NCBI GenBank assembly: GCA_964574655.1
Contig: CAZNOH010000001.1
Location: 137,852-201,851 of the forward strand
Reading direction: 5' to 3'
DNA: 64,000 bases
From: an uncultured Candidatus Saccharibacteria bacterium
Lineage (GTDB): Bacteria > Patescibacteriota > JABMPQ01 > JAQVVF01
The notes under the pieces are model-generated. The model worked only from the letters and a program-made list of their open reading frames with translations, had not been told where the DNA came from and did no database searches. The position numbers and the translations under genes are program-made. Numbering within the stretch: position 1 is the stretch's first letter; each line of letters begins with the position of its first letter. This document shows positions 1 through 12,889 of the stretch, piece after piece.

Positions 1-792
1 AAACATCGGCAAGCTTAAGGATAAGCTCCAGATAAATTTATGCCAATAATTCTTGGTTTCTTTTTCTGATCTGATTTGGTCTTGTTTGGAATTGTTTTTA
101 GTTATAATCGAAGCATTATAGCCGGCATGTTTAATGGTTTTTATAATATCGTTTTCGCTTACTTTTGTACTATCAAAAATTACTCTACCTTTGGAAGCAG
201 TAAGATTTACATTTGCGGATTTAATTCCAGACAATTTTTTTAATTCTTTTTCAATAATATTGGCACAAGATGTACAATGCATGCCTTCGATTGCTAGATT
301 GATTTGTTGATTGGCAGAACCAGTTTTGATTACTTTTATAGGTTGATTGGTATTAATCTCATTATTCTTAATATGTTGATCAGCGGTAGCGGTATTTCTA
401 ACTAAGCAGGCTAGATATTCAGCTAATTTTTCAGCATTAGAGCCTTCGGCTTCTATTTTTGTTTCAATCTTTATTTTGAATGCCAAAGGCTTTTCGGTTT
501 TTTTGATGATAGCCTTTTCTGAATTATTATCTTTTGGTTTTTCTTGATTATTGTCATTATTATTATCTTCGTTTTTTTCATTAATAATTTCTGCTTCATA
601 GCCGGCTGTTTTTATTTTTCCTAGAATTGCTGATGAATTAGTTAGAATGTTATCGAAAGTAATTTCGCCATATCCAGAAGCATGGTTGATTTTGATATCT
701 TTAATTCCAGGCAATTCGCGTATGGTCATAGAAATTATTTTTTCGCAGGAAGCACAATGCATTCCCAAAATATCTAAAGTTATTTTGTACAT
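1..792 (-). CDS. copA: Copper-translocating P1B-type ATPase CopA, 5' part only (start codon at 792, gene runs off the window edge). It has two N-terminal HMA domains (GMHCASCE and GMHCTSCA) followed by the first transmembrane segment.
   Basis: My manual minus-strand translation from the ATG at 792 gives MYKITLDILGMHCASCEKII..., then a second HMA at about 240-300 (QQINLAIEGMHCTSCANIIEKELKK), then KFIWSLSLSLPMF. I checked the frame triplet by triplet and found no stop codon before position 1. It is not in the supplied ORF track because it is partial. Confidence 0.7.
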   Translation of the reverse strand, partial: MYKITLDILGMHCASCEKIISMTIRELPGIKDIKINHASGYGEITFDNILTNSSAILGKIKTAGYEAEIINEKNEDNNNDNNQEKPKDNNSEKAIIKKTEKPLAFKIKIETKIEAEGSNAEKLAEYLACLVRNTATADQHIKNNEINTNQPIKVIKTGSANQQINLAIEGMHCTSCANIIEKELKKLSGIKSANVNLTASKGRVIFDSTKVSENDIIKTIKHAGYNASIITKNNSKQDQIRSEKETKNYWHKFIWSLSLSLPMF

Positions 793-842
793 AAAAATTT
801 GATTAATTTATTATTTATTTATTTATTTATTTATTAATTAAT

Positions 843-2468
843 TTAATGGCAACTATAGCTAGAAGGCGGAGGATTGTAGTCGATATAGCTGTCATAATTA
901 TCGTTATTAATATCAGTATTGGTGTCAGTACTGGTGTTAGTATTTGTAACGGCATTATTTTCAGTTGCAGTGTCATTGGAACATCCGTTGCAGCCTGTAT
1001 TGCCTGAAGGTACGATGTCCAAGTCAGTATCTACTTGCGCATTAACATTATTAACAATTGAATTTTTAGCTGAGTCGTTGTTATCAACTACTTTAATAGC
1101 ACCAGAGACCATGCCCATCCAACAGCTGAATTTGTATGTTCCTGATTTTGTAGGTGTAAATTCTTTGATGCTAACTTGGCCAGGCTTCAAACTTATGGAG
1201 TCGTTGAATAACCCTTTTGAAATAACGGCATTAGTGCAGCCGCTTGTACCAGTATCGGTGATTTCCCATCTAACTGGAACATTTGTTTTGATTGTGAATT
1301 GATTAGGAGAGTAGCCTCTGGAAGAAGCATCCATTTTTAAAAGTTGTTTTCCATTAACAATTGGCGCTAGATTTTTTTCTGGATTATTATTTGTTTTTGA
1401 GGGATTGATTTTAATATTATTGAAACTAGCAAGGCCAGCGGTATTAAGTTGAGAATTGATATTAAAGATTGCAAAAAATAAAACTAAAATTCCAGCAATT
1501 CTTAGGAATTTACCTGATAGATGCGGTTTTTGGGATACTTTTACTGAAGAAAAACCAATCATTAATAATGGACCAAAAGTTCCAAGAGCAAAGAAAAGCA
1601 TTATTAAGCTTCCTTGCAAGGCGCTTCCGGAGATTAAAGCAATGCTTTGAGCTGTAATGGTAAATCCGCAAGGCAAGAAAAAAGTGAATGCGCCCATTAT
1701 AAATGGCATATAACGGCCTTTAAAATTTGACTCATCAGCAACATATTTGGTTATAAATTTTGGAGTAGTGATTTGAAATCTTTGCAAAGCCTTTACGCCT
1801 AACATTTGCAAAGCTAAAATTATCATTAATATTGAGACAATAATGACTAGCGCAAATGTAAAATTAGTTGAAATTTGAAGTTTTTGTCCGACAAATCCAA
1901 GGATTGCTCCAAAAAATGCATATGAAATGATTCGGCCGAAATTGAATAACAGATGAGGCTGTAATTTTTGCGTTAATGATTGTTTATTTGAATACAACTC
2001 TGACCATTGTTTAGACATTGATAAAATAATACCGCCAACTAAAGCAGCACAGCTTGAAACTCCAGCTAAAAGGCCGAATAAAACAAAAATCGGCAAAGAT
2101 GATTTGCTGTCAACATTAATCAGGTTAGAAAGTCCGAGCTTGTTCAGAATAAGAAAACCAGCAATTAGTAACAATGCTGTGCCTACAATGATGAAAAAGT
2201 TTTTTTGCGGAGAATGTATTTTATCCTCTTCTTCTTGTTGCTCGGAAAAATGATATTTTTCTTGAGAAAAATAATGATTAAGCGATTTTAAGCTGGGTTG
2301 TTCCTTTGTATATTCAATAGTTACCCTAGCTTTATTGTTTGAAGCATCAACTGATTTTATGTTTTCTAGTTTCAGTAATTTTTTTTCAATGATAAGTTCG
2401 CATGATGCGCAATGCATGCCTTTGACATAATAAGTTTGCTGTTTTATCTTTTGGTTATTTTTTTGCAT
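843..2468 (-). CDS. Fusion membrane protein: N-terminal HMA (CopZ-like, MHCASCE) domain, then a CcdA/DsbD-like polytopic membrane domain with Cys in transmembrane helices (SSC, LPCGF), then a C-terminal CupA-like cupredoxin domain (Cys ... CWMGM, i.e. CxMxM).
   Basis: 541-aa ORF. The HMA motif GMHCASCELIIEKKL is at the N-terminus. The hydrophobic core resembles the cytochrome c biogenesis CcdA/DsbD transmembrane region. The C-terminal soluble domain has GCTNAV and FSCWMGM, matching the CxMxM binuclear Cu(I) site of the S. pneumoniae CupA-type cupredoxin. It lies 8 nt downstream of csoR and upstream of copA on the same strand. Confidence 0.6.
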   Translation of the reverse strand: MQKNNQKIKQQTYYVKGMHCASCELIIEKKLLKLENIKSVDASNNKARVTIEYTKEQPSLKSLNHYFSQEKYHFSEQQEEEDKIHSPQKNFFIIVGTALLLIAGFLILNKLGLSNLINVDSKSSLPIFVLFGLLAGVSSCAALVGGIILSMSKQWSELYSNKQSLTQKLQPHLLFNFGRIISYAFFGAILGFVGQKLQISTNFTFALVIIVSILMIILALQMLGVKALQRFQITTPKFITKYVADESNFKGRYMPFIMGAFTFFLPCGFTITAQSIALISGSALQGSLIMLFFALGTFGPLLMIGFSSVKVSQKPHLSGKFLRIAGILVLFFAIFNINSQLNTAGLASFNNIKINPSKTNNNPEKNLAPIVNGKQLLKMDASSRGYSPNQFTIKTNVPVRWEITDTGTSGCTNAVISKGLFNDSISLKPGQVSIKEFTPTKSGTYKFSCWMGMVSGAIKVVDNNDSAKNSIVNNVNAQVDTDLDIVPSGNTGCNGCSNDTATENNAVTNTNTSTDTNTDINNDNYDSYIDYNPPPSSYSCH

Positions 2469-2476
2469 TTGTTTTT

Positions 2477-2749
2477 TTATTTGTTAAATAGTTTAGTAAC
2501 GCTTAAAATTTCTTGGCTCATAATTTTCTTTTTTTTCTCATTATTGGTTGCCATAGCGCTTTTAAAGCAAGTATTAAGATGATTTTCCATGAGCATTTGA
2601 TGAGCAGAGCGCAATAGGCCGATAGCTGCTAGATTTTGTTGCATAACATCAATACAATACTGATCAGATTCGATCATTTGAATCATCTTAGCAATTAGGC
2701 TTTGAGCCTTTTTAAAGTTAATAAGGGTTTTTTCCTTCTCATTTGTCAT
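2477..2749 (-). CDS. csoR: CsoR/RcnR-family metal-sensing transcriptional repressor (copper-sensitive operon repressor).
   Basis: 90 aa, with the DUF156 signature QYCIDVMQQ...RSAHQMLMENHLNTC (Cys-His-Cys ligand triad). It is the first gene of the minus-strand operon csoR, HMA/CcdA/CupA fusion, copA. Confidence 0.8.
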   Translation of the reverse strand: MTNEKEKTLINFKKAQSLIAKMIQMIESDQYCIDVMQQNLAAIGLLRSAHQMLMENHLNTCFKSAMATNNEKKKKIMSQEILSVTKLFNK

Positions 2750-2776
2750 GGTTGTTTAGAAAGTTAATATTTATAG

Positions 2777-2801
2777 ATACCTATACCCTAGGTACAGGTA
2801 T
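2777..2801. promoter_or_regulatory. Candidate CsoR operator: imperfect GC-core palindrome ATACCTATACCCTAGGTACAGGTAT (core TACC-TAG-GGTA), about 30 bp upstream of the csoR start.
   Basis: I read the near-palindrome directly. It resembles described CsoR boxes of the TACCC...GGGTA type. It sits in the divergent promoter region between csoR and the CopB-like ATPase. Confidence 0.4.
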
Positions 2802-2994
2802 GCAATCAATATATATGATGGGCTATTTTTTGTCAAACATTAATTATCCACAAGATAAAAAAAGGCAAAAGTAAAAAGGAAAAATTAAAAAGTTTCAAGT
2901 TAAAAAATCATTAAAGTTTTATGTATTTTTTAGTGATTGTAAGTGTTTTGTTTGTAATATATAATAGGGTTGCTATAAGATATTGGTAAAATTT

Positions 2995-5244
2995 ATGCAA
3001 AATAAAAATAAAATGATTCATCATTGTAGTTGTAATAAATGTATTTGTGGTGAAGCTGAAAAATTAAGTGTTAGTTGTGGTTGCGAATTGGAAGCAAAAC
3101 AATATGAATATGGTCTTGATAAAAAAATGAAGCATAAGGATCATAAGATGAATATGGACTCTAGTTCAACAGCTAATCAGGCAAAGCATGATATGTCTAA
3201 GATGAGCCATCCCTCCTTTGCTTCTGCTACGGAGGGCAGGCAAGATCATGAAATGGCAATGACAAATCCAATGATGGCCAAAGAGATGGAGGCAGATATG
3301 AAGCGCAGATTTTTTATCTCGCTTTTTTTGTCAATTCCGATTCTTCTTTATTCGCCTGTTGCCATTAATTTTTTTAAACTTAATTTACCGTCATTAATAC
3401 CGGTAAATTGGCTGTTATTTATTTTAACAACGCCAATTGTTTTTTGGGCCGGTTCAATTTTTATTATAGGCGCATATTATTCTCTCAAAAGTCGAAAATT
3501 AAATATGTCTGTTTTGATTGCAACTGGTGTTTTGGCGGCATATTTATTTAGCGTATTTTTAACTATTATAAATGGCGGAGAGACTTTTTATGAAGCGGCA
3601 GCGTTGTTGGTAACTTTTGTTTTGTTTGGGCATTGGATGGAGATGAAATCTCGGCGAGGTACTTCTGATTCTTTGCGGGCTCTTTTTGATTTGGTTCCGC
3701 CTCAAGCTAAAATTTTACGGAATGGAAAAGAAATTACTGTTCAAGTTAGTAAAGTAATAAAAGGAGACATTGTAGTGATTCACCCTGGCGATAAAATTCC
3801 TGTTGATGGTGAAATAATTGAGGGTGAAACAGTAATTGATGAGTCATTGGTTACTGGCGAATCTATTCCAGTTGAAAAAAAAGTAAAAGATAAAGTTATT
3901 GGCGGATCAATTAATCAAACTGGAGCAATAAAATTTAAGGCAGAAAAAGTTGGTAGTGAGACAGTTTTAGCTCAGATAATCAAATTAGTAGAGACTGCTC
4001 AAAATTCAAAAGCTCCAGGACAGAGAATTGCTGATAAGGCAGCTGGTTGGTTAGTTATCTTGGCAGTTGGTTCTGGTTTGGCAACTTTTTTGGGCTGGTA
4101 TTTTGTAGCTCAATCATCATTGTTTATTGCTTTAACTTTTGCGGTTTCAACTGTTGTGATTGCTTGTCCGGATGCATTGGGATTGGCAACGCCGACTGCG
4201 GTTGCAGTTGGCACTGGCATTGGAGCAAAACATAATATTTTGATCAAAGATGCTACAACATTGGAACAAGTTTCAAAAATTCAGGCGATTGTTCTGGATA
4301 AGACTGGTACTTTGACAGAAGGAAAGCCAAAAATGACTGATTTGAGAAGTTTTAACGGATTTACAGAAACTGATGTTTTGCTTTATGAAGCGAGCTTGGA
4401 AAGCGGATCAAATCATCCAGTTGCTAAAGCAATTGGTGATTCTGCAAAAGAAAAGAAAGTTTTGCTTATGCGTTTGAATAAGTTTGAGTCAATAGCTGGA
4501 TTTGGATTAGCTGGCATAGTTAACGGAAAAAATGCTTTGGCTGGAAAAGAACAATTATTGATAGATAAAAAAGTTGATACCTCAGTTGGAAAATTAGATC
4601 GAGATAAATTTTTTGATCAAGGCAAAACATTAAGTTTTTTAGCAATAGATGGCAAGCTTGCTGGAATAATTGCGGTTGCTGACACGATCAAGCCTACTGC
4701 AAAGCAAGCAATTAAAAATTTTAAAAAAATGAATATAGAGGTGGCGATGATTACTGGCGATCATAAAAAAGTTGCAGAAGCTGTTGGCAAAGAATTAAAT
4801 ATCGATCGTGTTTTTGCTGGAGTTGAGCCTTCAGATAAGGCGAAATATGTTAAAAAACTTCAAGATGAAAATAAATTTGTGGCAATGGTTGGAGATGGTA
4901 TAAATGATGCTCCAGCTTTAGCTCAATCTGATATTGGAATTGCAATTGGGGCAGGGACAGAAGTCGCAATTGAAACTGCCAAAGTTGTTTTGATGAAATC
5001 TGATCCATTTGATATTATTCGAGCGATAATTTTGAGCAAGGCAACAGTTACAAAAATGAAACAGAATCTTTTTTGGGCGGCAATTTATAATATTCTAGCA
5101 ATTCCTGTTGCAGCTGGAGTTTTTTATAATTCTTTCGGTATTTCTTTACGTCCAGAAATTTCAGCTTTGTTGATGTCTGCTTCTTCAATTATTGTGGCAA
5201 CTAATGCAGTATTATTGAAAAGAGTTGAGTCTAGATTAAAATAA
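2995..5244 (+). CDS. Heavy-metal (probably copper) P1B-type ATPase, CopB-like, with a Cys/His/Met-rich N-terminal metal-binding region. It has DKTGT, YN...P and MSASS motifs, but its TM6 motif is CPD instead of CPC/CPH.
   Basis: The ORF is 2983..5244 with a TTG-extended start; the ATG at 2995 is the likely real start. Motifs present are DKTGTLT, GDGINDAP, ACPDALGLATP, AAIYNILAIPVAAG and LMSASS. The N-terminus has CSCNKCICGE, SCGCE, HKDHKMNM and MTNPMMAKEMEADM. Confidence 0.85.
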   Translation: MQNKNKMIHHCSCNKCICGEAEKLSVSCGCELEAKQYEYGLDKKMKHKDHKMNMDSSSTANQAKHDMSKMSHPSFASATEGRQDHEMAMTNPMMAKEMEADMKRRFFISLFLSIPILLYSPVAINFFKLNLPSLIPVNWLLFILTTPIVFWAGSIFIIGAYYSLKSRKLNMSVLIATGVLAAYLFSVFLTIINGGETFYEAAALLVTFVLFGHWMEMKSRRGTSDSLRALFDLVPPQAKILRNGKEITVQVSKVIKGDIVVIHPGDKIPVDGEIIEGETVIDESLVTGESIPVEKKVKDKVIGGSINQTGAIKFKAEKVGSETVLAQIIKLVETAQNSKAPGQRIADKAAGWLVILAVGSGLATFLGWYFVAQSSLFIALTFAVSTVVIACPDALGLATPTAVAVGTGIGAKHNILIKDATTLEQVSKIQAIVLDKTGTLTEGKPKMTDLRSFNGFTETDVLLYEASLESGSNHPVAKAIGDSAKEKKVLLMRLNKFESIAGFGLAGIVNGKNALAGKEQLLIDKKVDTSVGKLDRDKFFDQGKTLSFLAIDGKLAGIIAVADTIKPTAKQAIKNFKKMNIEVAMITGDHKKVAEAVGKELNIDRVFAGVEPSDKAKYVKKLQDENKFVAMVGDGINDAPALAQSDIGIAIGAGTEVAIETAKVVLMKSDPFDIIRAIILSKATVTKMKQNLFWAAIYNILAIPVAAGVFYNSFGISLRPEISALLMSASSIIVATNAVLLKRVESRLK

Positions 5245-5328
5245 AATAATTTTTATCCGCCTTTGTTAAAGCTTCCACCTTCGCTAAAGCTTCGGTGGAC
5301 AAGTCGGCGGACGAGGGAGGTGATAAAT

Positions 5329-5463
5329 ATGATGGATTATAATATGATGAGTGGAGTTAATGGGGGAAATATGATGTTTTTTGCTTGGACTATATATATT
5401 TTGATTATTGTTTTAATTATTTTGGCAATTATAGCGTTGTGGAAATATATAAATAAAAAATAA
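5329..5463 (+). CDS. Small Met-rich membrane peptide (MMDYNMMSGVNGGNMMFF + one transmembrane helix) downstream of the Cu-ATPase; a possible Cu(I)-binding accessory peptide.
   Basis: The supplied ORF 5263..5463 is over-extended through a hairpin element. The real start is probably the ATG at 5329, preceded by the Shine-Dalgarno sequence GAGGGAGG (5313-5320). Confidence 0.35.
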   Translation: MMDYNMMSGVNGGNMMFFAWTIYILIIVLIILAIIALWKYINKK

Positions 5464-5467
5464 AAAT

Positions 5468-5722
5468 ATGATAAATTTAAAACATTTAAGTAAAGTTGTT
5501 GTTTTATGGATGAGCCTTGTTTATACTGTTTGTTACGCAGGAGTGGCAATTTATCCTCCGATTAGAGGATTATTTATGAAATATTCTTTGCATGCTGACA
5601 TGGTTTTTGTTTCTAATTTTTTCAGTATTGGTTATTTTATTTCTGGTTTGATTATTTGGAATGTGGTTGGATTAGCTGGAGCCGGGTTGTTTGCTGTGTT
5701 GTTTAATAAAATTAAAAGTTAG
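5468..5722 (+). CDS. Hypothetical small membrane protein (two or three transmembrane helices).
   Basis: 84-aa ORF with hydrophobic segments, 4 nt after the previous small ORF. Confidence 0.35.
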   Translation: MINLKHLSKVVVLWMSLVYTVCYAGVAIYPPIRGLFMKYSLHADMVFVSNFFSIGYFISGLIIWNVVGLAGAGLFAVLFNKIKS

Positions 5723-5789
5723 ATAAAGAGTAGAAAAAATTATTATCATTTTTTTTGACAAATTTTGTATTTCTGGTAAAATAAACTTG

Positions 5790-6052
5790 TAAATTTTAAA
5801 AACGTTTGAGTCTGGTTATCGCCAGATGATGTTGGTGAAAGAAAGCTTGGAAGTTTCTACCTTGCCTCTGCCTTCGTTACGCTTTGGCAGGCAGGCATGG
5901 CAAGGGTCGAACCTCCGCCATGGGCGGAGTAGAAGTTCTGAGTAATTAGATTCATTCGGGTAAGCCCGTTATAGCTTGAAATAAGTTACCGCCTTCACTC
6001 TTCACTTCGTTCAGAGCTTCGGCGGTTAAAAGAGGTGGTACCGCGAATTATT
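5790..6052 (+). ncRNA. Candidate structured non-coding RNA or hairpin-element cluster. It is a GC-rich stretch with three GC-rich hairpin elements (5868-5895, 5912-5929, 5988-6026) plus other stem-loops, and ends at an intrinsic terminator.
   Basis: There is no ORF. GC content is locally higher than its surroundings. Nested helices include CCTTGCC...GGCAAGG, CTCCGCC-atg-GGCGGAG and CGGG-taag-CCCG. It is preceded by a weak promoter-like TTGACA-N15-TAAAAT (5756-5782). I recognised no RNase P, SRP or tmRNA signature. Confidence 0.25.
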
Positions 6053-6081
6053 CGCCCTCTAAATTTTTTAGGGCGTTTTTT
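6053..6081 (+). terminator. Rho-independent terminator (CGCCCT-loop-AGGGCG + T6).
   Basis: Perfect 6-bp GC stem followed by TTTTTT. Confidence 0.6.
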
Positions 6082-6159
6082 AATGGTAATAAAATGATTA
6101 TTGATGTGCAGACTTTTATAATTAAATAAAAAAACCACGTTAGTGGTTAAGTAAGTGCA

Positions 6160-6393
6160 TTATTTCTTTTGAGGAATGATCTGGAATTGAGAAATGAAAA
6201 GGTTGGAAAAATAGAAACAGAACAAACCGTTGATTAAGCAAAAAATGGTTAAAACTTCCATAATAAGAATATTCGTAGAAAGGAAAATCATGACTATTGC
6301 ATATAGCACAATTGCGAAATGTATTAGAGAAGCTGTTAAAAGAAACATCGTTATTGCGACTATCCAAGGATGTTTTTTGAGTGTGTTTCTCAT
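6160..6393 (-). CDS. Hypothetical small membrane protein (77 aa, two transmembrane helices).
   Basis: Hydrophobic ORF in an otherwise empty region; coding status uncertain. Confidence 0.25.
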   Translation of the reverse strand: MRNTLKKHPWIVAITMFLLTASLIHFAIVLYAIVMIFLSTNILIMEVLTIFCLINGLFCFYFSNLFISQFQIIPQKK

Positions 6394-6549: not shown

Positions 6550-9500
6550 ATGTTTAAAAAAGTAGATCCAAAACAAGATTTTATAAAATTAGAGCATGAT
6601 GTTCTTGGTTTTTGGAATGAGAACAGAATGTTTTATAAATTGCAGAATAAAAATCATGGCAAAGAGCCTTGGTCTTTTATTGATGGTCCAATTACAGCAA
6701 ATAATCCAATGGGAGTCCATCATGCGTGGGGCAGAACATTGAAAGATGTTTTTCAGCGTTATAAGGCGATGCAAGGATTTGATCAACGATGGCAAAATGG
6801 TTTTGATTGCCAAGGTCTTTGGGTTGAGGTTGAAGTTGAAAAAGATTTGGGATTTAATTCTAAAAAAGAAATTGAAAAATTCGGTTTGGATAATTTTTCT
6901 AAAGCTTGCAAAGAAAGAATTGAAAAATATTCCGAAATTCAGACTGAACAATCAAAAAGACTGGGACAGTGGATGGATTGGAGAAATTCTTATTATACAT
7001 ATACAGATGATAATATTGAGGCAATCTGGACTTTTTTAGAAAAATGCAAAAGAAATGGCTGGCTATACAAGGGATATTCAGTAATGCCTTGGTGTACAAG
7101 ATGCGGGACTGCTTTGTCTCAACATGAATTATCAGATGATGGCTGGAAAGAAGTTGTTCATCAGGCAGTTTATATTAAATTAAAAAGAAAAAGCGAAGAA
7201 GCTGAAATTAATGAATATTTCTTGGTTTGGACAACAACTCCTTGGACATTGCCAGCAAATGTTGCTTTGGCTGTAAATCCAAAAGTAAAATATGTCAGAG
7301 TAATGAAGGACGGCGAGACCTATATCTTAGCTAAGGCTTTAGTTTCGAAAGTTTTGGGTGAAGCAGAAATTGTAGAGGAAGTTGATGGAAAAAGTCTTTT
7401 GGGTCTGCATTATGAAGGACCTTTTGATGAATTGCCTGCACAAACAGGAGTAGATCACAAAGTAATTTCATGGGAAGATGTTTCTGATGCTGAAGGTACT
7501 GGCATTGTTCATATTGCGCCTGGTTGTGGTGAAGAAGATTATCAGCTTTCTAAAACTAATGATTTGAAAATTATTGCTCCAATTGATGAATTTGGCAACT
7601 ACGTTGATGGTTTCGACTGGTTGAACAAAAAAAATGTTCACGGAATTAAGAATGAGATTTTTTCTTCTTTGAAAGAAAAAGGTAATTTTTTGAAAATTGC
7701 TGATATTAAACATCGCTATCCATTTTGCTGGAGATGCAAAGAAGAATTAGTATTTAGAGCTGTTTCAGAATGGTTTATTGATGTTTCTGAAGTCAGAGAG
7801 CCAATGAGGAAGGCTGCAGAAAAAGTTGGTTGGTTGCCTGAATCAGTTGGCAAGAGAATGCAAGATTGGCTTGATAATATGGGAGATTGGGTAATTTCTC
7901 GAAAAAGATATTGGGGTTTGCCATTGCCTTTTTATGAATGTGAATGCGGTGAAGTAACTGCTGTAGAGTCACGAAAAGAGCTTTTAGAATTATCAAATCA
8001 ACAATCAACAAATTTGATATTAGCAAGGCATGGAAGAAGCGAAGGAAATGTTTTAGGAATTACTGATGGAAAAATGCCAGGAACAAATTTAGATTGGAAA
8101 GGCGAGGAAGAAGCCGATCAATTGGCGAAACAGATGAAAGAAAGAGGAGTTGATATTGTTTATACTTCACCTTTCTCTCGTTGTAAAAAAACAGCTGAAA
8201 AAGTGGCTAAATTATGCAATGCAGAATTAGTTGAAGATGAAAGGTTGAGAGAACAGGCTTTTGGTAATTGGAATGATAAGAAAGTTTTTGAAGTTGAAAA
8301 AGAACTTACTGATTTTTATGAGGAAAATGATGATAAAAAGGCTGGTGAGACAGGTGAAAGTATGAAAGAACTTTTTGCAAGATGTCAGGATTTTTATCAT
8401 GAAATTTTGAAAAAGCATAATGGCCAGACTGTTGTTGTAGTTACTCATGATGGAATTTTGGCAAATCTAGAAAAAGTAATTGTGAATAATAAAAAAGTTA
8501 GAAATGTTATGAAAGTTACAGCTCAAAATGCTAAAGCCCATGAAATTAATATTTTAGGGAATGGCCCCAGCCATGAAGGCGGGGCAAGCAAAATTATTCC
8601 TGAATTACATCGTCCTTGGATTGATGAACTAAAAATCATTTGTCCAAAATGTAAAAAGGAAGTATCGAGAATTAAGGATGTTGGTGATTGTTGGTTGGAT
8701 GCTGGAATCGTGCCTTTTTCAACATTAAAATATTTTAGCAATAAAGAATATTGGGCAAAATGGTTTCCTGCTGAATTTGTTTGTGAAATGCGTTCTCAAG
8801 TAAGATTGTGGTTCTATTCAATGCTTTTTATGGCTGTAACGTTGGAAGATGAGACGCCATATAAACAAGTGCTAGCTTATGAAGAAGTAAGAGATGAAAA
8901 AGGCAAGCCAATGCATAAGTCTTCTGGCAATGCGATCTGGTTTGATGAAGCAGCAGAAAAAATGGGAGCTGATGTGATGAGATGGATGTACTGTGTCCAA
9001 AATCCAGCTTACAACTTAAGATTTGGCTATAGATCCGCAGAAGCAATTAGACGCAAATTAATTTTGTTATGGAACGTTTATTCTTTCTTTGTGTTATATG
9101 CGAACATTGATAATTTTAAGCCTGTTGAAAATAATAAATTAGTACTGAACAATAAACTTGATCAGTGGATTATTTCAGCTTTGAATGCATTGATTGCTGA
9201 ATGCAATAAAGAAATGGATAGATTTAATGCTCAACGCGTAATGGAAAAATGCGAGAAGTTTTTGGATGATTTAGCAAATTGGTATGTAAGAAGATCAAGA
9301 AGGAGATTCTGGAAGAGTGAAAATGATCAGGATAAGAATCAAGCCTATCAAACGTTGTATACTGTTTTGACAAATTTTGTGAAATTAATTGCACCTGTTG
9401 TGCCATTTTTGTCTGAAGAAATGTATCAGAACTTGGAGCGTCAGAGCGTCGGAGCTTCGGAGATCGGAAGCGTCCACTTGTGTGATTATCCGAAGGCTGA

Positions 9501-10092
9501 TGTAAACTTGATTGATGAAAAGTTGAATATGGAGATGGATTTGGTGAGAACAATTGCGAAATTAGGTTTAGCTGCACGTGCAAAAGCACAAATGAAAGCA
9601 CGACAGCCGTTAGCTAAGTTGAAAGTTAAAAGTTTAAAGTTAAAAGTTACGGACGATTTAATTGCTATTTTAAAAGACGAATTAAATGTGAAAGTTATTG
9701 AATTTGTGGAAAAGATTGGTTTTGAGGTTGAAGAAAAGAAAAACAAGAAAAAGTATATTTCTAAAGAAAAAGGCTTTGAAGTTGAAGGTGATGGTAATGT
9801 TGTTATTGCTTTACAGACTGAATTAACTGAAGAACTAGAATTAGAAGGTATGGCTCGTGAAGTTGTCCGACAGATTCAATCAATGCGTAAAGAAGCTGAT
9901 TATCAGATTGCAGACCGTATTAAAGTTTGTTTTGAATTAGGTGAAAAAGGTAAAAAAGTTTGCCATCAGTTTGGTGATTATATTAAAAAAGAAACTTTGG
10001 CAACTGAATTAGAAGAAGGTAAAAAAGAAGTTGATTTGGGCAAAGAGGCGAAATTAGGCAAGGAAGAAGGATGGATTGGAGTGAAGAAATAG
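6550..10092 (+). CDS. ileS: Isoleucyl-tRNA synthetase (type 2, Thermus-like) with a histidine-phosphatase/phosphoglycerate-mutase-like domain of about 170 aa inserted between the two zinc-knuckle Cys pairs (CECG ... CPKC).
   Basis: Motifs seen are WTTTPWTLPAN (CP1 editing), WVISRKRYWGLPLPF, PMHKSSGN (the KMSKS equivalent), and a HIGH region GVHHAWG that aligns to T. thermophilus GLPHVGHA. The insert has LARHGRSEGN (the RHG catalytic motif) ... VVVTHDGIL (the second catalytic His). The likely start is the ATG at 6550 (MFKKVDPKQ); the supplied ORF begins at 6517. Confidence 0.9.
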   Translation: MFKKVDPKQDFIKLEHDVLGFWNENRMFYKLQNKNHGKEPWSFIDGPITANNPMGVHHAWGRTLKDVFQRYKAMQGFDQRWQNGFDCQGLWVEVEVEKDLGFNSKKEIEKFGLDNFSKACKERIEKYSEIQTEQSKRLGQWMDWRNSYYTYTDDNIEAIWTFLEKCKRNGWLYKGYSVMPWCTRCGTALSQHELSDDGWKEVVHQAVYIKLKRKSEEAEINEYFLVWTTTPWTLPANVALAVNPKVKYVRVMKDGETYILAKALVSKVLGEAEIVEEVDGKSLLGLHYEGPFDELPAQTGVDHKVISWEDVSDAEGTGIVHIAPGCGEEDYQLSKTNDLKIIAPIDEFGNYVDGFDWLNKKNVHGIKNEIFSSLKEKGNFLKIADIKHRYPFCWRCKEELVFRAVSEWFIDVSEVREPMRKAAEKVGWLPESVGKRMQDWLDNMGDWVISRKRYWGLPLPFYECECGEVTAVESRKELLELSNQQSTNLILARHGRSEGNVLGITDGKMPGTNLDWKGEEEADQLAKQMKERGVDIVYTSPFSRCKKTAEKVAKLCNAELVEDERLREQAFGNWNDKKVFEVEKELTDFYEENDDKKAGETGESMKELFARCQDFYHEILKKHNGQTVVVVTHDGILANLEKVIVNNKKVRNVMKVTAQNAKAHEINILGNGPSHEGGASKIIPELHRPWIDELKIICPKCKKEVSRIKDVGDCWLDAGIVPFSTLKYFSNKEYWAKWFPAEFVCEMRSQVRLWFYSMLFMAVTLEDETPYKQVLAYEEVRDEKGKPMHKSSGNAIWFDEAAEKMGADVMRWMYCVQNPAYNLRFGYRSAEAIRRKLILLWNVYSFFVLYANIDNFKPVENNKLVLNNKLDQWIISALNALIAECNKEMDRFNAQRVMEKCEKFLDDLANWYVRRSRRRFWKSENDQDKNQAYQTLYTVLTNFVKLIAPVVPFLSEEMYQNLERQSVGASEIGSVHLCDYPKADVNLIDEKLNMEMDLVRTIAKLGLAARAKAQMKARQPLAKLKVKSLKLKVTDDLIAILKDELNVKVIEFVEKIGFEVEEKKNKKKYISKEKGFEVEGDGNVVIALQTELTEELELEGMAREVVRQIQSMRKEADYQIADRIKVCFELGEKGKKVCHQFGDYIKKETLATELEEGKKEVDLGKEAKLGKEEGWIGVKK

Positions 10093-10258: not shown

Positions 10259-12889
10259 ATGCGAACAGAAAGATGGTTGATGATAGGTTTAATGTCTGTT
10301 TCTTTGATTTTTTGCACTTGCGTTATTGAACAAGCTGAAGTAGAAAATGAAGAGGTTGCAAATCGAGATATTGGCGGCAACAGTCCTAGTTTTAAGATTC
10401 CTCTCCCGAAAGGATTTGAATGGAAAGTCACGCAATCTTGGGGCGAGCATGCTGAACAATGTGATATTGATTATCCTCCAGCGTCTGGAGAAGATTATTT
10501 TGTAGAATCTTCTCATAATACTAGTTCTTATTGCGAATATGGTTGGGATTTTAGTTTACCAGGTTCAACTGATAGCGGAAAACCAGTTTTAGCTTCTGGC
10601 TTGGGCACTCTTAAATATATTGGGGATGGGACAAGTTCTGGACAATGCAATGGTTGGGGATACTGTGCGATCATTGATCATCAATACAAAAAAACTATTG
10701 ATGGCTTAGAGCATAATGTTTGTTCACGTTACGCACATATGATTATTGATTCGGGATCTCAGTTAGAAATAGGTCAGGATATTTGTCAGGGATTAAAAAT
10801 AGGAGAAATCGGAGATACTGATTCACCTGGAGCGTATCATCTTCATTTTCAGTTTGAAGATTGTGATAATCGGAAGCCATTGCGGATGGGATTTACAGAT
10901 GGAAATGGAGTTCCTCGATGTGAAGAATATTTGACGCTAACCAATGATGAAGTAGAAAGCTGTGGTGATTCTCCTGACGATGTTTTTGGTGATGCTGAAT
11001 TGCCAGAAGGTGGCTGGGTGAATGCAGGTTGTGGATCTTTGCCGGATTGTCCGTTAATTCCAAATTGTAATAGAGAAAAAGGAACTCATCTATTTTCTGA
11101 TTACATGATTGTTGATGATGTATTATTAGCTGCTGGATATCTTTATGGCGAATGTGCTTTGGATGGTAAAGCTGATGGCGGGTTACATCCAAATGATGAC
11201 ATTTCACGAGCAGAAACTTTAAAAGTTGCATTGAATTTGTTTGGTTTGGCGAGTGACAATTGTGGTGATTCAGAGAGCTTTACAGATGTTAGTCCTGATG
11301 ATTGGTTTTATGATTTGGTGAATTGTGCCCAGAAGTATGGAATCATTGAAAGCGTGGGCGGATCTTTTTATCCCAGTCATGCAGCGACTTTTGCTGAAGC
11401 GGCAAAAGTTGTTGTCGAAGCAGCGAATCAGGCTGATGTTATCGAAATAAAAAATGCGCATGAGTTAGGATTTAGCGGTTCGTCAGATTCTCATTGGTCA
11501 TTGAATTATTTTGCCACTCTTTATTATTATGGAGGAATCGATTTGGGTTATTTGCCAACTGCAATTTTGGAGCTACCAGTCAAGAGGAAGGATTTTTTTA
11601 TTATGGCAGCTTCTCTTTCGCCTTGTTTTTGCGGAAATGTTAATTGTAGTTCTGGCTGTGTTTGTGATCAGAAAGTTAGCGCTTGTGTTGATCCTGATGA
11701 TGTTTCGGATGATACAGGTGGTGGAGATGATGTAGAAGAAGAACTTGAGGAAAAAGAATTTGATTTGCAAATTGATTGCTTTGTTGATGTTGAGCATACA
11801 AGATGTGAAGATTCTGGTACAATTTTGTATGTAAAATGCGATTTGGAAAATAATGGCGATGAGGTTGTGAAGCTAAATAATCTTGTAATGTTTATGTCTA
11901 GTTCCTCTGAACAATGTCAAGTAACTGATCAAGATTTACATAGCGGTGTTGGAACTCAACATGTTGAGTCAGGAGAAATTAGAGATCTCAATGGACATTT
12001 TGAAATAACTTGTACAGATCAACCAAGAGATAGTGAATTTGAAGTCTATTTTGATTTGTATGAAAGGATTGATGGGGAAGTGACACAATACGAAGATATT
12101 TTGACAGCTGAAATATTTGTTGCTGATGAACCTTTTGAATTGTGCGAGGAAGATACGTGTACTCTATTGACGTGCCGTGTTATGGGATTTAGTTGCGGGT
12201 CTTACAGTGATAATTGCGGAGGCATAATAAGTTGTGGGAATTGTGAGCAAGACTTTGACTGCGTGGATGGCAGATGTCAGCAACGAGAAGTTTGTGAACC
12301 AGTGATCTGTCAAATATTAGGATATCAATGTGGAAATTACAACAACAATTGTGGAGGTATGATTAATTGTGGAAATTGTGGAAATGGTTTTTCTTGTCAA
12401 AATGGTGCATGCGTTGGAATACAAGAAGGTGTTTTTGATCAAGACCAATGCAATTTGTGTCCTTATACAACACCATGCGATGAAAATAATCATTGTCAGG
12501 CGGAAGGGTGGTACGATGATTGGGTATGTGAAAATGGATATGTCACAACTATTGGATCTCCAGGAGGCAGAGTAGAAATTGAAACTTCAGGCGGTCAACA
12601 AAGATTTTACCAATTTGATTTAAATCCGGCGATGCTATTTACTTTTAGTTGTGATGAATTGCCAGTGGCAATTTGGATTGAAACTGGTCCAGAATCGTTA
12701 AGTGTTGAAATTATGGATCCAAGTTTGCCATATTTTTCTTTTATTTCCCCACCATGTGAATGTGGTGTTTCAATTTATCCAAGGGGGATTGAAATGACTG
12801 CAAGAGGTATTTCTCTTTTGGTCAATAATGATGCAGAACATTGGTTGATTCGAGTGCCGATGAAAGATTATCGATCTTTTTTTGAGTAA
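10259..12889 (+). CDS. Secreted cell-surface protein. It has a signal peptide, an M23 (LytM-type) metallopeptidase domain (HxxxD ... GAYHLHFQFED), SLH-like domain(s) (FTDVSPDDWFYDLVNCAQKYGIIESVGGSFYPSHAATFAEAAKVV), an acidic linker, and C-terminal Cys-rich tandem repeats (CGSYSDNCGGIISCGNCEQDFDCVDGRCQ and CGNYNNNCGGMINCGNCGNGFSCQNGAC).
   Basis: 876-aa ORF with a hydrophobic N-terminus. The M23 HLH motif and the SLH consensus (F.DV...W...GI..G.F.P...T.AEAAK) were recognised by eye. Confidence 0.7.
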   Translation: MRTERWLMIGLMSVSLIFCTCVIEQAEVENEEVANRDIGGNSPSFKIPLPKGFEWKVTQSWGEHAEQCDIDYPPASGEDYFVESSHNTSSYCEYGWDFSLPGSTDSGKPVLASGLGTLKYIGDGTSSGQCNGWGYCAIIDHQYKKTIDGLEHNVCSRYAHMIIDSGSQLEIGQDICQGLKIGEIGDTDSPGAYHLHFQFEDCDNRKPLRMGFTDGNGVPRCEEYLTLTNDEVESCGDSPDDVFGDAELPEGGWVNAGCGSLPDCPLIPNCNREKGTHLFSDYMIVDDVLLAAGYLYGECALDGKADGGLHPNDDISRAETLKVALNLFGLASDNCGDSESFTDVSPDDWFYDLVNCAQKYGIIESVGGSFYPSHAATFAEAAKVVVEAANQADVIEIKNAHELGFSGSSDSHWSLNYFATLYYYGGIDLGYLPTAILELPVKRKDFFIMAASLSPCFCGNVNCSSGCVCDQKVSACVDPDDVSDDTGGGDDVEEELEEKEFDLQIDCFVDVEHTRCEDSGTILYVKCDLENNGDEVVKLNNLVMFMSSSSEQCQVTDQDLHSGVGTQHVESGEIRDLNGHFEITCTDQPRDSEFEVYFDLYERIDGEVTQYEDILTAEIFVADEPFELCEEDTCTLLTCRVMGFSCGSYSDNCGGIISCGNCEQDFDCVDGRCQQREVCEPVICQILGYQCGNYNNNCGGMINCGNCGNGFSCQNGACVGIQEGVFDQDQCNLCPYTTPCDENNHCQAEGWYDDWVCENGYVTTIGSPGGRVEIETSGGQQRFYQFDLNPAMLFTFSCDELPVAIWIETGPESLSVEIMDPSLPYFSFISPPCECGVSIYPRGIEMTARGISLLVNNDAEHWLIRVPMKDYRSFFE

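Follow-up and report, generated by a model that had tools for sequence, protein, structure and literature searches.

How a Patescibacterium (candidate-phyla-radiation bacterium) might handle Cu(I) with a fusion protein carrying a copper-binding domain on either side of a membrane core, and with a P1B ATPase whose TM6 motif reads CPD, was addressed by computational analysis of positions 1 to 5,722 of the window (the whole 64,000-nucleotide stretch of DNA analyzed). The region is a copper-detoxification locus. Genes for csoR, the 541-aa fusion and copA form a tightly packed minus-strand operon (gaps of 8 and 50 nt), with copA truncated at the window edge; the CPD-motif ATPase gene is divergent from this operon and has a gene for a Met-rich 44-aa peptide and then a DUF5676 gene at its 3′ side. 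Chance open reading frames were ruled out because strong homologues exist for every gene described. The gene content and positions bear out the original prediction, which had listed csoR, the fusion, a partial copA with two HMA domains, the divergent CPD ATPase and the Met-rich peptide; the DUF5676 gene, beginning 4 nt after the peptide gene, and a candidate operator in the divergent intergenic region had been overlooked. The features are as follows.

1..792, minus strand: 5′ part of copA, Cu(I) P1B ATPase with two N-terminal HMA domains (Pfam PF00403, two stretches, E 1.4e-29)
843..2468, minus strand: 541-aa fusion with an HMA domain, TM0 and the six TM helices of a DsbD_2 core (seven TM helices in all), a CupA-like cupredoxin and a tail with Cys residues (Pfam; AF2 model, pLDDT 72)
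846..1007, minus strand: low-complexity Asn/Thr/Asp-rich tail of the fusion with GCNGC and C-terminal ...SCH (homologue conservation)
1098..1352, minus strand: CupA-like cupredoxin of the fusion, aa 373-457, ligands Cys411, Cys449, Met451 and Met453, predicted extracytoplasmic (Cupredoxin_1, E 2e-8)
1467..2087, minus strand: DsbD_2/CcdA-like six-TM core of the fusion, aa 128-334 (PF13386, E 1e-33; PF02683, DsbD_TM, E 6e-11)
2298..2435, minus strand: CopZ-like HMA domain of the fusion, aa 12-57, motif GMHCASC, predicted cytoplasmic (PF00403, E 4e-10)
2477..2749, minus strand: csoR, Cu(I)-sensing repressor (PF02583, E 1e-13)
2743..2770, plus strand: weaker promoter-like site toward the CPD pump, TTGTCA, 16 nt, TAATAT (consensus scan 9/12; pattern match only)
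2777..2801, no strand: candidate CsoR operator, 25-bp ATACCTATACCCTAGGTACAGGTAT, with a nested TACC-N9-GGTA palindrome (inverted repeat, arms 91% complementary)
2808..2836, minus strand: csoR-operon promoter-like site, TTGACA, 17 nt, TATATT (consensus scan 11/12; pattern match only)
2937-2965, plus strand: second promoter-like site toward the CPD pump (consensus scan 10/12; pattern match only)
2995..5244, plus strand: P1B ATPase of the CopB lineage with CPD in TM6 and lacking an HMA domain (TIGR01511, E 9e-171)
5329..5463, plus strand: 44-aa peptide, Met-rich at the N-terminus, with a single TM helix and a basic C-terminal end, KYINKK (homologue at the same position)
5468..5722, plus strand: DUF5676 protein, 84 aa, two TM helices (PF18926, 31.4 bits against a cut-off of 27.6)

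The best reading, to which we give about an even chance, is a copper efflux locus under CsoR control that would include a membrane-spanning fusion with a TM Cys relay and a second exporter. The divergent placement of the CPD pump beside the fusion is particular to this genome and not a conserved unit, because a CPD pump adjoined the fusion in none of 80 related loci.

CsoR and the divergent control region

In CsoR, claimed earlier as a C-H-C sensor, the family match was joined by Cys32, His57 and Cys61 at the spacing of the CsoR triad. The operator motif occurred as a single copy in the 64 kb (0.12 expected), and at 35 of 53 related loci it was found close upstream of csoR (mostly within ~60 nt), as against 2.8% of background windows. 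The candidate operator begins just downstream of the csoR-operon promoter-like site, the palindrome overlapping the start of the operon promoter, and this arrangement matches a classical CsoR logic in which Cu(I) would release the repressor. Toward the pump, the site at 2743..2770 directly precedes the candidate operator. Control of the CPD pump by CsoR is uncertain because ~135 nt separate the operator from the better of the pump promoter-like sites, which lies downstream of it.

The fusion protein: modules, topology and distribution

All four Pfam matches in the fusion (HMA, DsbD_2, DsbD_TM and Cupredoxin_1) exceeded the gathering scores, and a PDB sequence search matched its HMA domain with metal-binding domains of CopA and ATP7B. 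The C-terminal domain, compared with pneumococcal CupA in the original prediction, modeled as a cupredoxin whose best Foldseek match was CupA itself (4f2e; TM 0.86, rmsd 1.5 A); phmmer aligned the two (2mry/4f2e, E 1.6e-5) with all four ligands in register. The proposed order of HMA domain, CcdA/DsbD-like core with TM Cys and CupA-like cupredoxin thus held in full. Cys20, Cys23, Cys140, Cys267, Cys411, Cys449, Met451 and Met453 were invariant in 120 homologues, and both the CupA-type ligands and the pair Cys140 and Cys267 remained so down to 28% identity. In the AF2 models, helix TM1 is broken at Cys140 and helix TM4 at Cys267 (LPCG). Homologue alignments also gave an invariant Met290 in TM5 and near-invariant TM residues Met151, Met215, Met222, Met258 and His172. 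Since Foldseek found no structural match for the TM core in the PDB, its fold was assigned from HMMs only. Of 120 homologues, 92-114 had the CxC of the tail and 101 had its penultimate Cys. The homologue from Acetoanaerobium noterae has the same ...SCH ending.

Because the AF2 models contain seven TM helices and the positive-inside bias is strong (mean K+R 12.2 in predicted inner loops versus 1.2 in outer loops, 64 homologues), the CupA-like domain is predicted to be extracytoplasmic, on the opposite side to CupA. CcdA is N-out, C-out, which agrees with the predicted orientation of the fusion core. Streptococcus pneumoniae CupA (PDB 4F2E, copY-cupA-copA operon), a membrane-anchored cupredoxin Cu(I) chaperone, is the best match of the C-terminal domain in both sequence and structure; the fusion shares its fold and four ligands (Cys, then CxMxM), and in each case the gene immediately precedes copA and is under the control of a copper-sensing repressor. 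CupA is anchored by a single N-terminal helix and is the cytoplasmic partner of a cupredoxin-type CopA metal-binding domain (PMC5646241), whereas the cupredoxin of the fusion comes after seven TM helices, with a predicted location outside the cell; CopA here has HMA domains, and the repressor is CsoR rather than CopY.

Homologues of the fusion made up >2,500 protein clusters, and the fusion was present in at least 551 species genomes, mostly of Patescibacteria. It mostly occurred within a csoR-fusion-copA operon behind a conserved TACC-N9-GGTA palindrome: of 71 related loci, 50 had csoR upstream in the same orientation; a P1B ATPase of CPC type with HMA domains followed the fusion in 60 of 65 loci, and 40 of 59 had both neighbors. 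HMA+DsbD_2 proteins (COG2836) were already predicted members of a CsoR regulon (PMC4938975), and the split form, with separate CopZ and DsbD_2-cupredoxin genes, appears in a Chloroflexi locus table (PMC8756737). The three-part fusion, earlier believed undescribed, is therefore widespread and already in databases, with a putative function. The COG2836 proteins of the gut Firmicutes CsoR meta-regulon (HMA + DsbD_2 + DUF2318) share the HMA-DsbD_2 fusion and the predicted CsoR control but end in DUF2318, not in a CupA-like cupredoxin, and are likewise known from bioinformatics only. In Tsukamurella, Deinococcus and Streptomyces a DsbD_2-cupredoxin gene is followed by a leaderless HMA gene; given such split forms with an adjacent HMA gene, the three modules are probably linked in function.

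A proposed thiol relay or a possible metal relay across the membrane

As we read it, the fusion would span the membrane, with the CopZ-like HMA domain inside and the CupA-like Cys2Met2 Cu(I) site and the Cys-rich tail on the outer face, the two ends being joined by the CcdA/DsbD-type core with Cys140/Cys267 as the relay. The HMA domain would hand Cu(I) to CopA, while at the cell surface the outer domain would take up copper and possibly reduce it; reducing equivalents sent outward through the TM Cys pair would keep or reset the outer cysteines. Thiol-coupled Cu(I) handling at the membrane, the idea offered by the original prediction, is plausible on this basis, although the Cys pair may instead relay Cu(I) itself.

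A redox relay is supported by the position of Cys140 and Cys267 at the TM1 and TM4 sites of the DsbD/CcdA core (Pfam, AF2) and by CupA, whose Cys74/Cys111 pair reduces Cu(II) and ends oxidized with no known reductant (PMC5646241). Further support may come from neighbors: at least 7 of 80 related operons encode, between the fusion and copA, an HMA-TM-DsbA/Thioredoxin_4 protein with CPYC, and CcdA + TlpA/peroxiredoxin pairs flank split versions on actinobacterial plasmids. CcdA/DsbD and ScsB-ScsC ('suppressor of copper sensitivity') provide a known transmembrane thiol-disulfide relay to an extracytoplasmic Cu(I)-binding thioredoxin-fold protein. The fusion resembles them in its six-TM core with Cys in TM1 and TM4, its DsbD_TM and DsbD_2 HMM matches, its predicted N-out, C-out orientation and its link to copper tolerance, and the DsbA/Thioredoxin_4-like protein of its sister operons recalls ScsB-ScsC. 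It differs in that the outer partner is a fused cupredoxin in place of a thioredoxin fold, a metal-binding HMA domain occupies the place where thioredoxin would dock, the Cys140 motif lacks the PC(x)2P pattern, and the core has no match to solved structures. We know of no case in which an HMA CxxC serves as reductant of a DsbD-type core, and this counts against a redox relay.

A less probable explanation makes the fusion a transporter that relays Cu(I) independently of ATP by MerT/MerP-type thiolate hand-over, with no electron transfer; the metal would move from ligand to ligand among the cytoplasmic HMA CxxC, Cys140/Cys267 with the TM methionines, and the external Cys2Met2 site with the Cys-rich tail. 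Each of the two end domains is of an established kind that exchanges Cu(I), an HMA module goes with the core in every case, within the same protein or encoded by the adjacent gene, and the invariant Met290 and near-invariant TM Met/His residues would suit Cu(I) conduction no less than an electron relay. Most members of the LysE superfamily, which includes the DsbD fold, are transporters of small ions or metals. In MerT/MerP/NmerA, too, HMA domains and TM Cys pairs pass a thiophilic metal across the membrane. MerTP is the best NCBIfam match of the fusion N-terminus, though a weak one, and merA or merB adjoins two of the three split versions examined, which recalls metal-relay transporters and counts against an electron relay. 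The membrane folds differ, however, the MerTP match scored 34.8 bits, far under the cut-off of 180, and the end domains would lie on opposite membrane sides from MerP and NmerA, MerP being periplasmic and the fusion HMA domain cytoplasmic. Neither an energy source nor a direction can be read from the sequence for such a transporter; export would repeat the task of CopA, encoded in the same operon, and import by a CsoR-controlled protein would be counter-productive. The HMA-TM-DsbA-like proteins of sister operons carry the same HMA module yet, with only one TM helix, cannot conduct metal, and these islands repeatedly contain thiol-redox partners.

That the fusion exports sulfite or organosulfonates as a TauE/SafE protein and merely lies beside copper genes is very improbable: homologues are named 'sulfite exporter TauE/SafE family protein' by NCBI and 'sulfite exporter TauE/SafE/copper chaperone CopZ/plastocyanin' by JGI, but PF01925 (TauE) gave no match at E <= 0.1 while the core matched DsbD_2 and DsbD_TM, two copper-binding domains with invariant ligands flank that core, and the context in most genomes is a csoR-copA operon.

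The CPD pump and two small membrane proteins

The pump gene (alternative TTG start at 2983) encodes CPD in TM6 with the codons TGT CCG GAT at 4165-4173, NLFWAAIYNILAIP in TM7 and MSASSIIVATN in TM8. Residues 1-105 contain 6 Cys, 7 His and 13 Met, where the composition of the remaining sequence would give 0.2, 0.8 and 1.8. The Cys/His/Met-rich N-terminus, YN...P and MSASS named in the original prediction are all present. CPD was conserved in all of the 120 closest database homologues and all 87 metagenome relatives; it also occurs in cultured bacteria, with Bradyrhizobium, Thermus and Ralstonia carrying it on finished plasmids. That CPD is a misread CPC or CPH, from an error of sequencing or assembly (GAT for Asp is one base from CAT for His), is refuted by this conservation across independent assemblies and has practically no chance of being correct. 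In a neighbor-joining tree, CPD, SPD and CPH pumps formed one clade that excluded all 133 CPC pumps, the CPD pumps grouping with CPH CopB pumps. The pump is thus CopB-like with a genuine CPD, as proposed, and the motif is widespread and previously known: a 2017 study described it as new in three rhizobial pumps (PMC5552934), and the searchable literature held no biochemical characterization of any CPD pump. With both odd parts of the locus, the fusion and this pump, already in databases, the claim of novelty is mostly deflated.

CopB (P1B-3, CPH) and the rhizobial 'CPD' subtype (Cubillas et al., 2017, PMC5552934) resemble the pump in lacking a CxxC-type HMA domain, in a His/Met-rich N-terminus and in the YN(X)4P and MSxSS motifs; the CPD pump of Bradyrhizobium sp. 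BTAi1, of a genus covered there, is 47% identical. The Patescibacteria branch differs by an extra N-terminal CxC...CxxC...MEAKQYEY Cys motif, and relatives often have PF19335 (HMBD) as well.

The pump, of CopB lineage, would serve as a second exporter of copper. It is improbable that the pump is instead not a Cu(I) exporter, Asp in place of His (CPH) or of the second Cys (CPC) having retuned the TM site to Cu(II) or another harder cation. In favor of such retuning, Asp393 is invariant across a deep clade that lacks CxxC-type HMA domains, and the neighbors are varied, some of them (rhodanese, ICMT-like and Lycopene_cyc-like proteins) not copper-related. Against it, NX6YNX4P in TM7 and MSxSS in TM8 are Cu(I)-type signatures, Cys, His and Met abound in the N-terminus, and Met-rich partners suggest Cu(I). 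Copper genes are also frequent neighbors (csoR, CopZ/CopA, multicopper oxidase, CopC, four-helix-bundle copper-binding protein): among 82 pump loci, csoR was near in 28 and HMA proteins in 36, and in cultured hosts a multicopper oxidase, CopC or a four-helix-bundle copper protein adjoins the pump.

The putative second exporter may work with two small membrane proteins, the Met-rich peptide, its Met-rich end outward, and the DUF5676 protein. The peptide gene is preceded by a GGAGGTG Shine-Dalgarno sequence, and its product is predicted to have the N-terminus out and the C-terminus in. Its relative at the matching position of one JGI contig (L085, the same as L089) is 73% identical, with codon differences of which 16 are synonymous and 12 non-synonymous; the Met-rich membrane micro-peptide of the original prediction is accordingly a conserved gene. 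DUF5676-type genes were found near CPD pumps in 18 of the 82 loci, typically directly downstream, and a related cluster in 13 more.

The copper locus and its predicted regulation

Six genes were located within the first 5.7 kb of the window, where G+C content is ~33%. All genes listed for this copper island in the original prediction were present, and its inventory was accurate; the DUF5676 gene, absent from that inventory, was added here. The region is a typical Patescibacteria copper-defence locus, and its parts are already abundant in databases. The features are as follows.

Features of the copper locus, by window position
1-792, minus strand: copA, first 264 codons, encoding two HMA domains; the window edge cuts the gene
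843-2468, minus strand: fusion gene, 541 aa, second in transcription order, between csoR and copA
2477-2749, minus strand: csoR, first in transcription order
2777-2801: 25-bp palindrome (inverted repeat), candidate CsoR operator, ATACCTATACCCTAGGTACAGGTAT
2995-5244, plus strand: P1B ATPase with CPD in TM6 (CPD pump), no HMA domain
5329-5463, plus strand: gene for a 44-aa peptide, preceded by a GGAGGTG ribosome-binding site
5468-5722, plus strand: DUF5676 gene, 84 aa, two TM helices, beginning 4 nt past the peptide gene

Because the intergenic gaps are just 8 and 50 nt, csoR, the fusion gene and copA were assigned to one operon. In the window CsoR, the four-helix-bundle domain PF02583 was detected with E 1e-13 (51.9 bits vs a cut-off of 22.8), and Cys32, His57 and Cys61, with a Tyr before the first Cys, have 25- and 4-residue spacing identical to that of the Cu(I) ligand triad, which in M. 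tuberculosis CsoR consists of Cys36, His61 and Cys65.

The divergent intergenic region between the csoR operon and the CPD pump gene is 245 nt. The palindrome ATACCTATACCCTAGGTACAGGTAT starts just 3′ of a good minus-strand promoter-like site, and at the sequence level the window csoR has a candidate pseudo-palindromic operator at its own predicted promoter. No second copy of the operator was found elsewhere in the 64-kb window. In related loci, TACC-N9-GGTA was present close upstream of csoR (mostly within ~60 nt) in 35/53, compared with 2.8% of background windows. On the pump side, the operator lies ~135 nt upstream of the better promoter-like site, and a weaker pump-facing promoter-like site (2743-2770) abuts it.

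In the 80 best fusion loci, csoR was upstream of and on the same strand as the fusion gene in 50/71 informative cases. Downstream, 60/65 had a P1B ATPase, almost without exception of CPC type and HMA-bearing, and both genes were found in 40/59. By these comparisons, csoR-fusion-copA is a standard, conserved copper operon of this phylum, and is predicted to be self-regulated.

Domains, topology and distribution of the fusion

Pfam profiles placed HMA at aa 12-57, DsbD_2/DsbD_TM at aa 128-334 and Cupredoxin_1 at aa 373-457 of the fusion, all above gathering scores (for the core, PF13386 117 bits vs a cut-off of 24.9 and PF02683 42 bits vs 27.1; for the cupredoxin domain, PF13473 E 2e-8). When the PDB was searched with phmmer, the fusion matched two pneumococcal proteins, CupA (2mry/4f2e, E 1.6e-5) and CopA, the latter by its cupredoxin metal-binding domain (4f2f, E 7.8e-4). 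In the CupA alignment, SGCTNAV falls over the Cys74 region and FSCWMGM over FACGMNM (Cys111, Met113, Met115), and fusion residues Cys411, Cys449, Met451 and Met453 align with CupA Cys74, Cys111, Met113 and Met115. The AlphaFold2 model had a mean pLDDT of 72, with the HMA and cupredoxin blocks mostly at 80-95, and its best Foldseek match was CupA 4f2e (TM-score 0.86, rmsd 1.5 Å, 26% identity). The HMA, DsbD-like and cupredoxin domains of the original prediction were thus all recovered, and the C-terminal domain, proposed there to be CupA-like, does model as a cupredoxin. A Foldseek search of the TM-only model against the PDB gave no match, including to solved CcdA/DsbD.

Across 120 homologues, Cys20 and Cys23 (HMA), Cys140, Cys267, Cys411, Cys449, Met451 and Met453 were invariant, and the CxC and penultimate Cys of the tail were retained by most. 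Cys140, Cys267, Met290 and the four cupredoxin ligands were still invariant in homologues of 28-31% identity (n = 4; Acetoanaerobium, Tsukamurella, Deinococcus and Streptomyces). Tails of the form GCGCGGG...C are found in most Patescibacteria homologues; an ...SCH terminus is common to the window fusion (tail 846-1007) and the 31% identical protein of cultured Acetoanaerobium noterae (locus L170, 4974-6446). Two tandem cupredoxin domains occur in some Actinomycetota versions.

Both AlphaFold2 models contained seven TM helices, with an extra TM0 (aa 87-110) ahead of a six-helix core. TM1 is broken exactly at Cys140 and TM4 at LPC267G, each helix contributing one invariant Cys at its break. Lys plus Arg averaged 12.2 in predicted cytoplasmic loops vs 1.2 in the opposite loops (64 homologues). 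Because the leaderless HMA domain is inside, seven TM helices follow and the Lys/Arg bias is positive-inside, the cupredoxin domain and the Asn/Thr-rich, Cys-bearing tail are predicted to lie outside the cell.

The cupredoxin fold and the Cys plus CxMxM binuclear Cu(I) ligands are common to CupA and the fusion, but CupA has a single N-terminal anchor with its domain toward the cytoplasm, whereas the fusion has seven TM helices and a predicted external domain. The CopA partner of CupA has a cupredoxin metal-binding domain, in place of which the window copA fragment has two HMA domains. Each of the three modules of the fusion is well understood by itself; combined, with the CupA-like site outside the cell according to the topology prediction, they form an arrangement that no characterised system shows. 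In one Patescibacteria copper island (L088), a CPD pump and an HMA-type CopA were found together with a stand-alone 117-aa CupA-like protein (8430-8783; one anchor helix with basic residues after it, predicted cytoplasmic) and a DsbD_2-cupredoxin protein without HMA (11186-12241).

More than 2,500 significant homologues of the fusion were obtained among 8,000 candidates scored, and the three-domain architecture was the same in all of the best 120. In a scan of one genome per species, a relative was found in at least 551 genomes; among the matches listed, Patescibacteria formed the majority, with some Actinomycetota and Atribacterota. The three-part fusion, taken as not yet described in the original prediction, is therefore neither undescribed nor rare. 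Patescibacteria genomes are very small. Because at least 551 species retain the operon despite this, the three-gene copper operon is probably important for the surface-attached lifestyle of these bacteria.

Homologues are labelled 'sulfite exporter TauE/SafE family protein' by NCBI and 'sulfite exporter TauE/SafE/copper chaperone CopZ/plastocyanin' by JGI. A TauE/SafE identity was rejected (no PF01925 match at E ≤ 0.1, copper context), and the name 'sulfite exporter TauE/SafE', carried by thousands of database entries, probably misleads. A MerTP identity was not supported either, as NF033556 scored 34.8 bits vs a cut-off of 180 and covered the HMA part alone. HMA+DsbD_2 proteins (COG2836) were predicted in the CsoR regulon of gut Firmicutes (PMC4938975), and a Chloroflexi locus table shows neighbouring 'CopZ' and 'DsbD_2 ... 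cupredoxin' genes (PMC8756737). Apart from this regulon prediction and locus table, no functional study was found in the literature on PF13386, COG2836, DUF5676 and DsbD_2 plus cupredoxin.

Possible relay of electrons or copper by the fusion

In cultured Tsukamurella, Deinococcus and Streptomyces the modules occur in a split form, in which a plasmid-borne DsbD_2-cupredoxin gene has a leaderless HMA gene directly after it; cultured Acetoanaerobium noterae has all three fused, with copA next. By gene arrangement, the HMA, DsbD_2 and cupredoxin modules are functionally linked. For the fusion we prefer, at somewhat less than an even chance, a thiol-disulfide relay through the DsbD/CcdA-type core, which would use the Cys in TM1 and the Cys in TM4, with the HMA domain playing a CopZ-like role toward CopA alongside. 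The exposed external Cys2Met2 site and Cys-rich tail would require keeping reduced. In CupA, Cu(II) is reduced by the Cys74/Cys111 pair, which is then oxidised and whose reductant is not known (PMC5646241).

At least 7 of 80 sister operons contain an extra gene separating the fusion gene from copA; its HMA-TM-DsbA/Thioredoxin_4 product has a CPYC motif and resembles ScsC in architecture. This window has no DsbA-like (thioredoxin-fold) partner gene. A thiol-disulfide relay through the fusion would presumably resemble ScsB-ScsC. Pairs of CcdA plus TlpA or peroxiredoxin adjoin split forms, and one CPD-pump island holds a DsbD_TM plus Redoxin pair. In one example of the DsbA-like protein (locus L010, 9567-10580), the HMA domain is predicted to be cytoplasmic and, across a single TM helix, the CPYC-bearing DsbA/Thioredoxin_4 domain to face outward.

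The fusion might instead pass Cu(I) across the membrane by an ATP-independent thiolate relay, as would fit two end domains that both exchange Cu(I), an invariant Met290 with several other TM Met/His nearly so, and the merA or merB adjoining two split forms, which recalls MerT/MerP. We rate this somewhat less likely than the thiol-disulfide relay, although by a small margin; the preference comes from the DsbA-like proteins, in which an HMA module of this kind is joined to one TM helix incapable of metal conduction. The split-form islands of the Tsukamurella, Deinococcus and Streptomyces plasmids (L169, L171 and L172) are mixed heavy-metal islands that also hold merA or merB, MerR-type regulators, a multicopper oxidase and CcdA/TlpA pairs.

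More speculatively, the fusion family could be a self-contained membrane-spanning copper machine of an uncharacterised kind, acting as a CupA-resetting electron source or a Cu(I) relay, and the main CPR copper chaperone system; we hold this broader proposal to be doubtful. If it is an electron source, a CcdA-like conduit would be built in and would drive a domain outside the cell that reduces Cu(II) and captures Cu(I). Whether electrons or copper pass via the two membrane Cys would define a new copper-handling route, and the same answer might identify the reductant missing from the CupA mechanism.

The CPD pump and its neighbours

The CPD codons in TM6 of the divergent pump are TGT CCG GAT (4165-4173), and CPDALGLATP was kept in 120/120 closest database homologues (65-75% identity) and in 87/87 close metagenome relatives. 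CPD pumps were also found on finished plasmids of Bradyrhizobium sp. BTAi1, Thermus brockianus and Ralstonia insidiosa, where they adjoin a multicopper oxidase, CopC or a four-helix-bundle copper protein. This conservation, together with the finished plasmids, rules out a sequencing error. Among 50%-identity cluster representatives the nearest ones read CPD, with seven CPD and one SPD followed by 133 CPC and 6 CPH, and in a neighbour-joining distance tree without support values the CPD, SPD and CPH pumps formed one clade without any CPC pump.

The N-terminal 105 residues contain 6 Cys, 7 His and 13 Met. NX6YNX4P in TM7 reads NLFWAAIYNILAIP and MXXSS in TM8 reads MSASS; both signatures are common to P1B-1 CopA, but the CPC in TM6 and N-terminal HMA of that group are absent from the pump. 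With P1B-3 CopB it shares the clade and the His/Met-rich, HMA-less N-terminus, TM6 reading CPD rather than CPH. The CopB-like assignment of the original prediction is upheld by this tree position and N-terminus, and the CPD variant proved to be conserved in relatives as well; it had also been taken as not yet described, but a 'novel CPD motif' was reported in three rhizobial pumps clustering with CPH CopB (Cubillas et al. 2017, PMC5552934). CPD, YN(X)4P and MSxSS, which mark that subtype, are all present in the window pump, with MSASS in TM8 vs MSGSS in the rhizobial pumps. As comparison of sequences has it, the CPD variant is real, old and already noted, and its function is a predicted one. 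Within the CopB lineage, the metal specificity of which has been debated, CPD pumps make up a deep branch that has yet to be studied, and a single Asp/His/Cys swap would be a clean test of the TM6 contribution to selectivity.

Patescibacteria CPD pumps share an N-terminal Cys motif, CxC..CxxCxAExLxV..G..MEAKQYEY (window 2995-3300), and, ahead of TM helix 1, the stretch DHEAAMTNPQMAKxMEADMRRRF. PF19335 (HMBD) was detected in many relatives of the pump and is absent from the window copy.

In 82 non-redundant CPD-pump loci, neighbours included HMA proteins (36), csoR (28), rhodanese (20), DsbD_TM (19), DUF5676 (18, plus 13 of a related cluster), ICMT-like (16) and Lycopene_cyc-like (13) proteins. 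A CPD pump was found within 8 kb of the fusion in 0/80 fusion loci, so a conserved fusion and CPD-pump unit was rejected and the divergent pairing in the window is a local arrangement; just 13 fusion-matching ORFs were found across 87 CPD-pump loci. A small PF18916 (Lycopene_cyc) membrane protein is encoded directly upstream of or overlapping the pump gene in 13/82 loci (e.g., L082, L087, L088 and L108). In another locus (L084, 170-8130), the CPD pump closes a long same-strand cluster that begins with csoR, DsbD_TM, Redoxin and two small ORFs and continues with a MacAB-like adaptor and an ABC transporter, the ATPase subunit of which has a YHS domain.

A 44-aa peptide 73% identical to that of the window follows the pump in one independent contig (L085 and L089, two fetches of one JGI contig), and codon differences between the two were 16 synonymous vs 12 non-synonymous. 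This pattern indicates that the Met-rich peptide gene is real and under selection. In locus L112 a 51% identical version is encoded on the strand opposite to the pump, ~2 kb away from it, and in L087 a 109-aa single-TM Met/Gln/Gly-rich protein occupies the position of the peptide. Given its basic C-terminus (KYINKK), the 44-aa peptide is predicted to have its Met-rich end outside the cell. It may accept Cu(I) where the pump releases it, or serve as a small regulatory subunit. The DUF5676 protein matched PF18926 with 31.4 bits (cut-off 27.6); the family recurs near CPD pumps, typically just downstream, and no literature on it was found. A structured RNA between the pump and peptide genes (5245-5335) was rejected, as the fold was no better than shuffled (z = -1.19).

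Downstream of the copper locus, a T-box-like leader (5711-6062, plus strand; RF00230, 49 bits vs a gathering score of 93) was followed after ~470 nt, with unannotated minus-strand ORFs only in between (6140-6393), by a gene for isoleucyl-tRNA synthetase (6550-10092, plus strand, 1,180 aa). This synthetase carries a complete His_Phos_1 domain (aa 489-672, E 3.7e-37) inside its class-I catalytic core.
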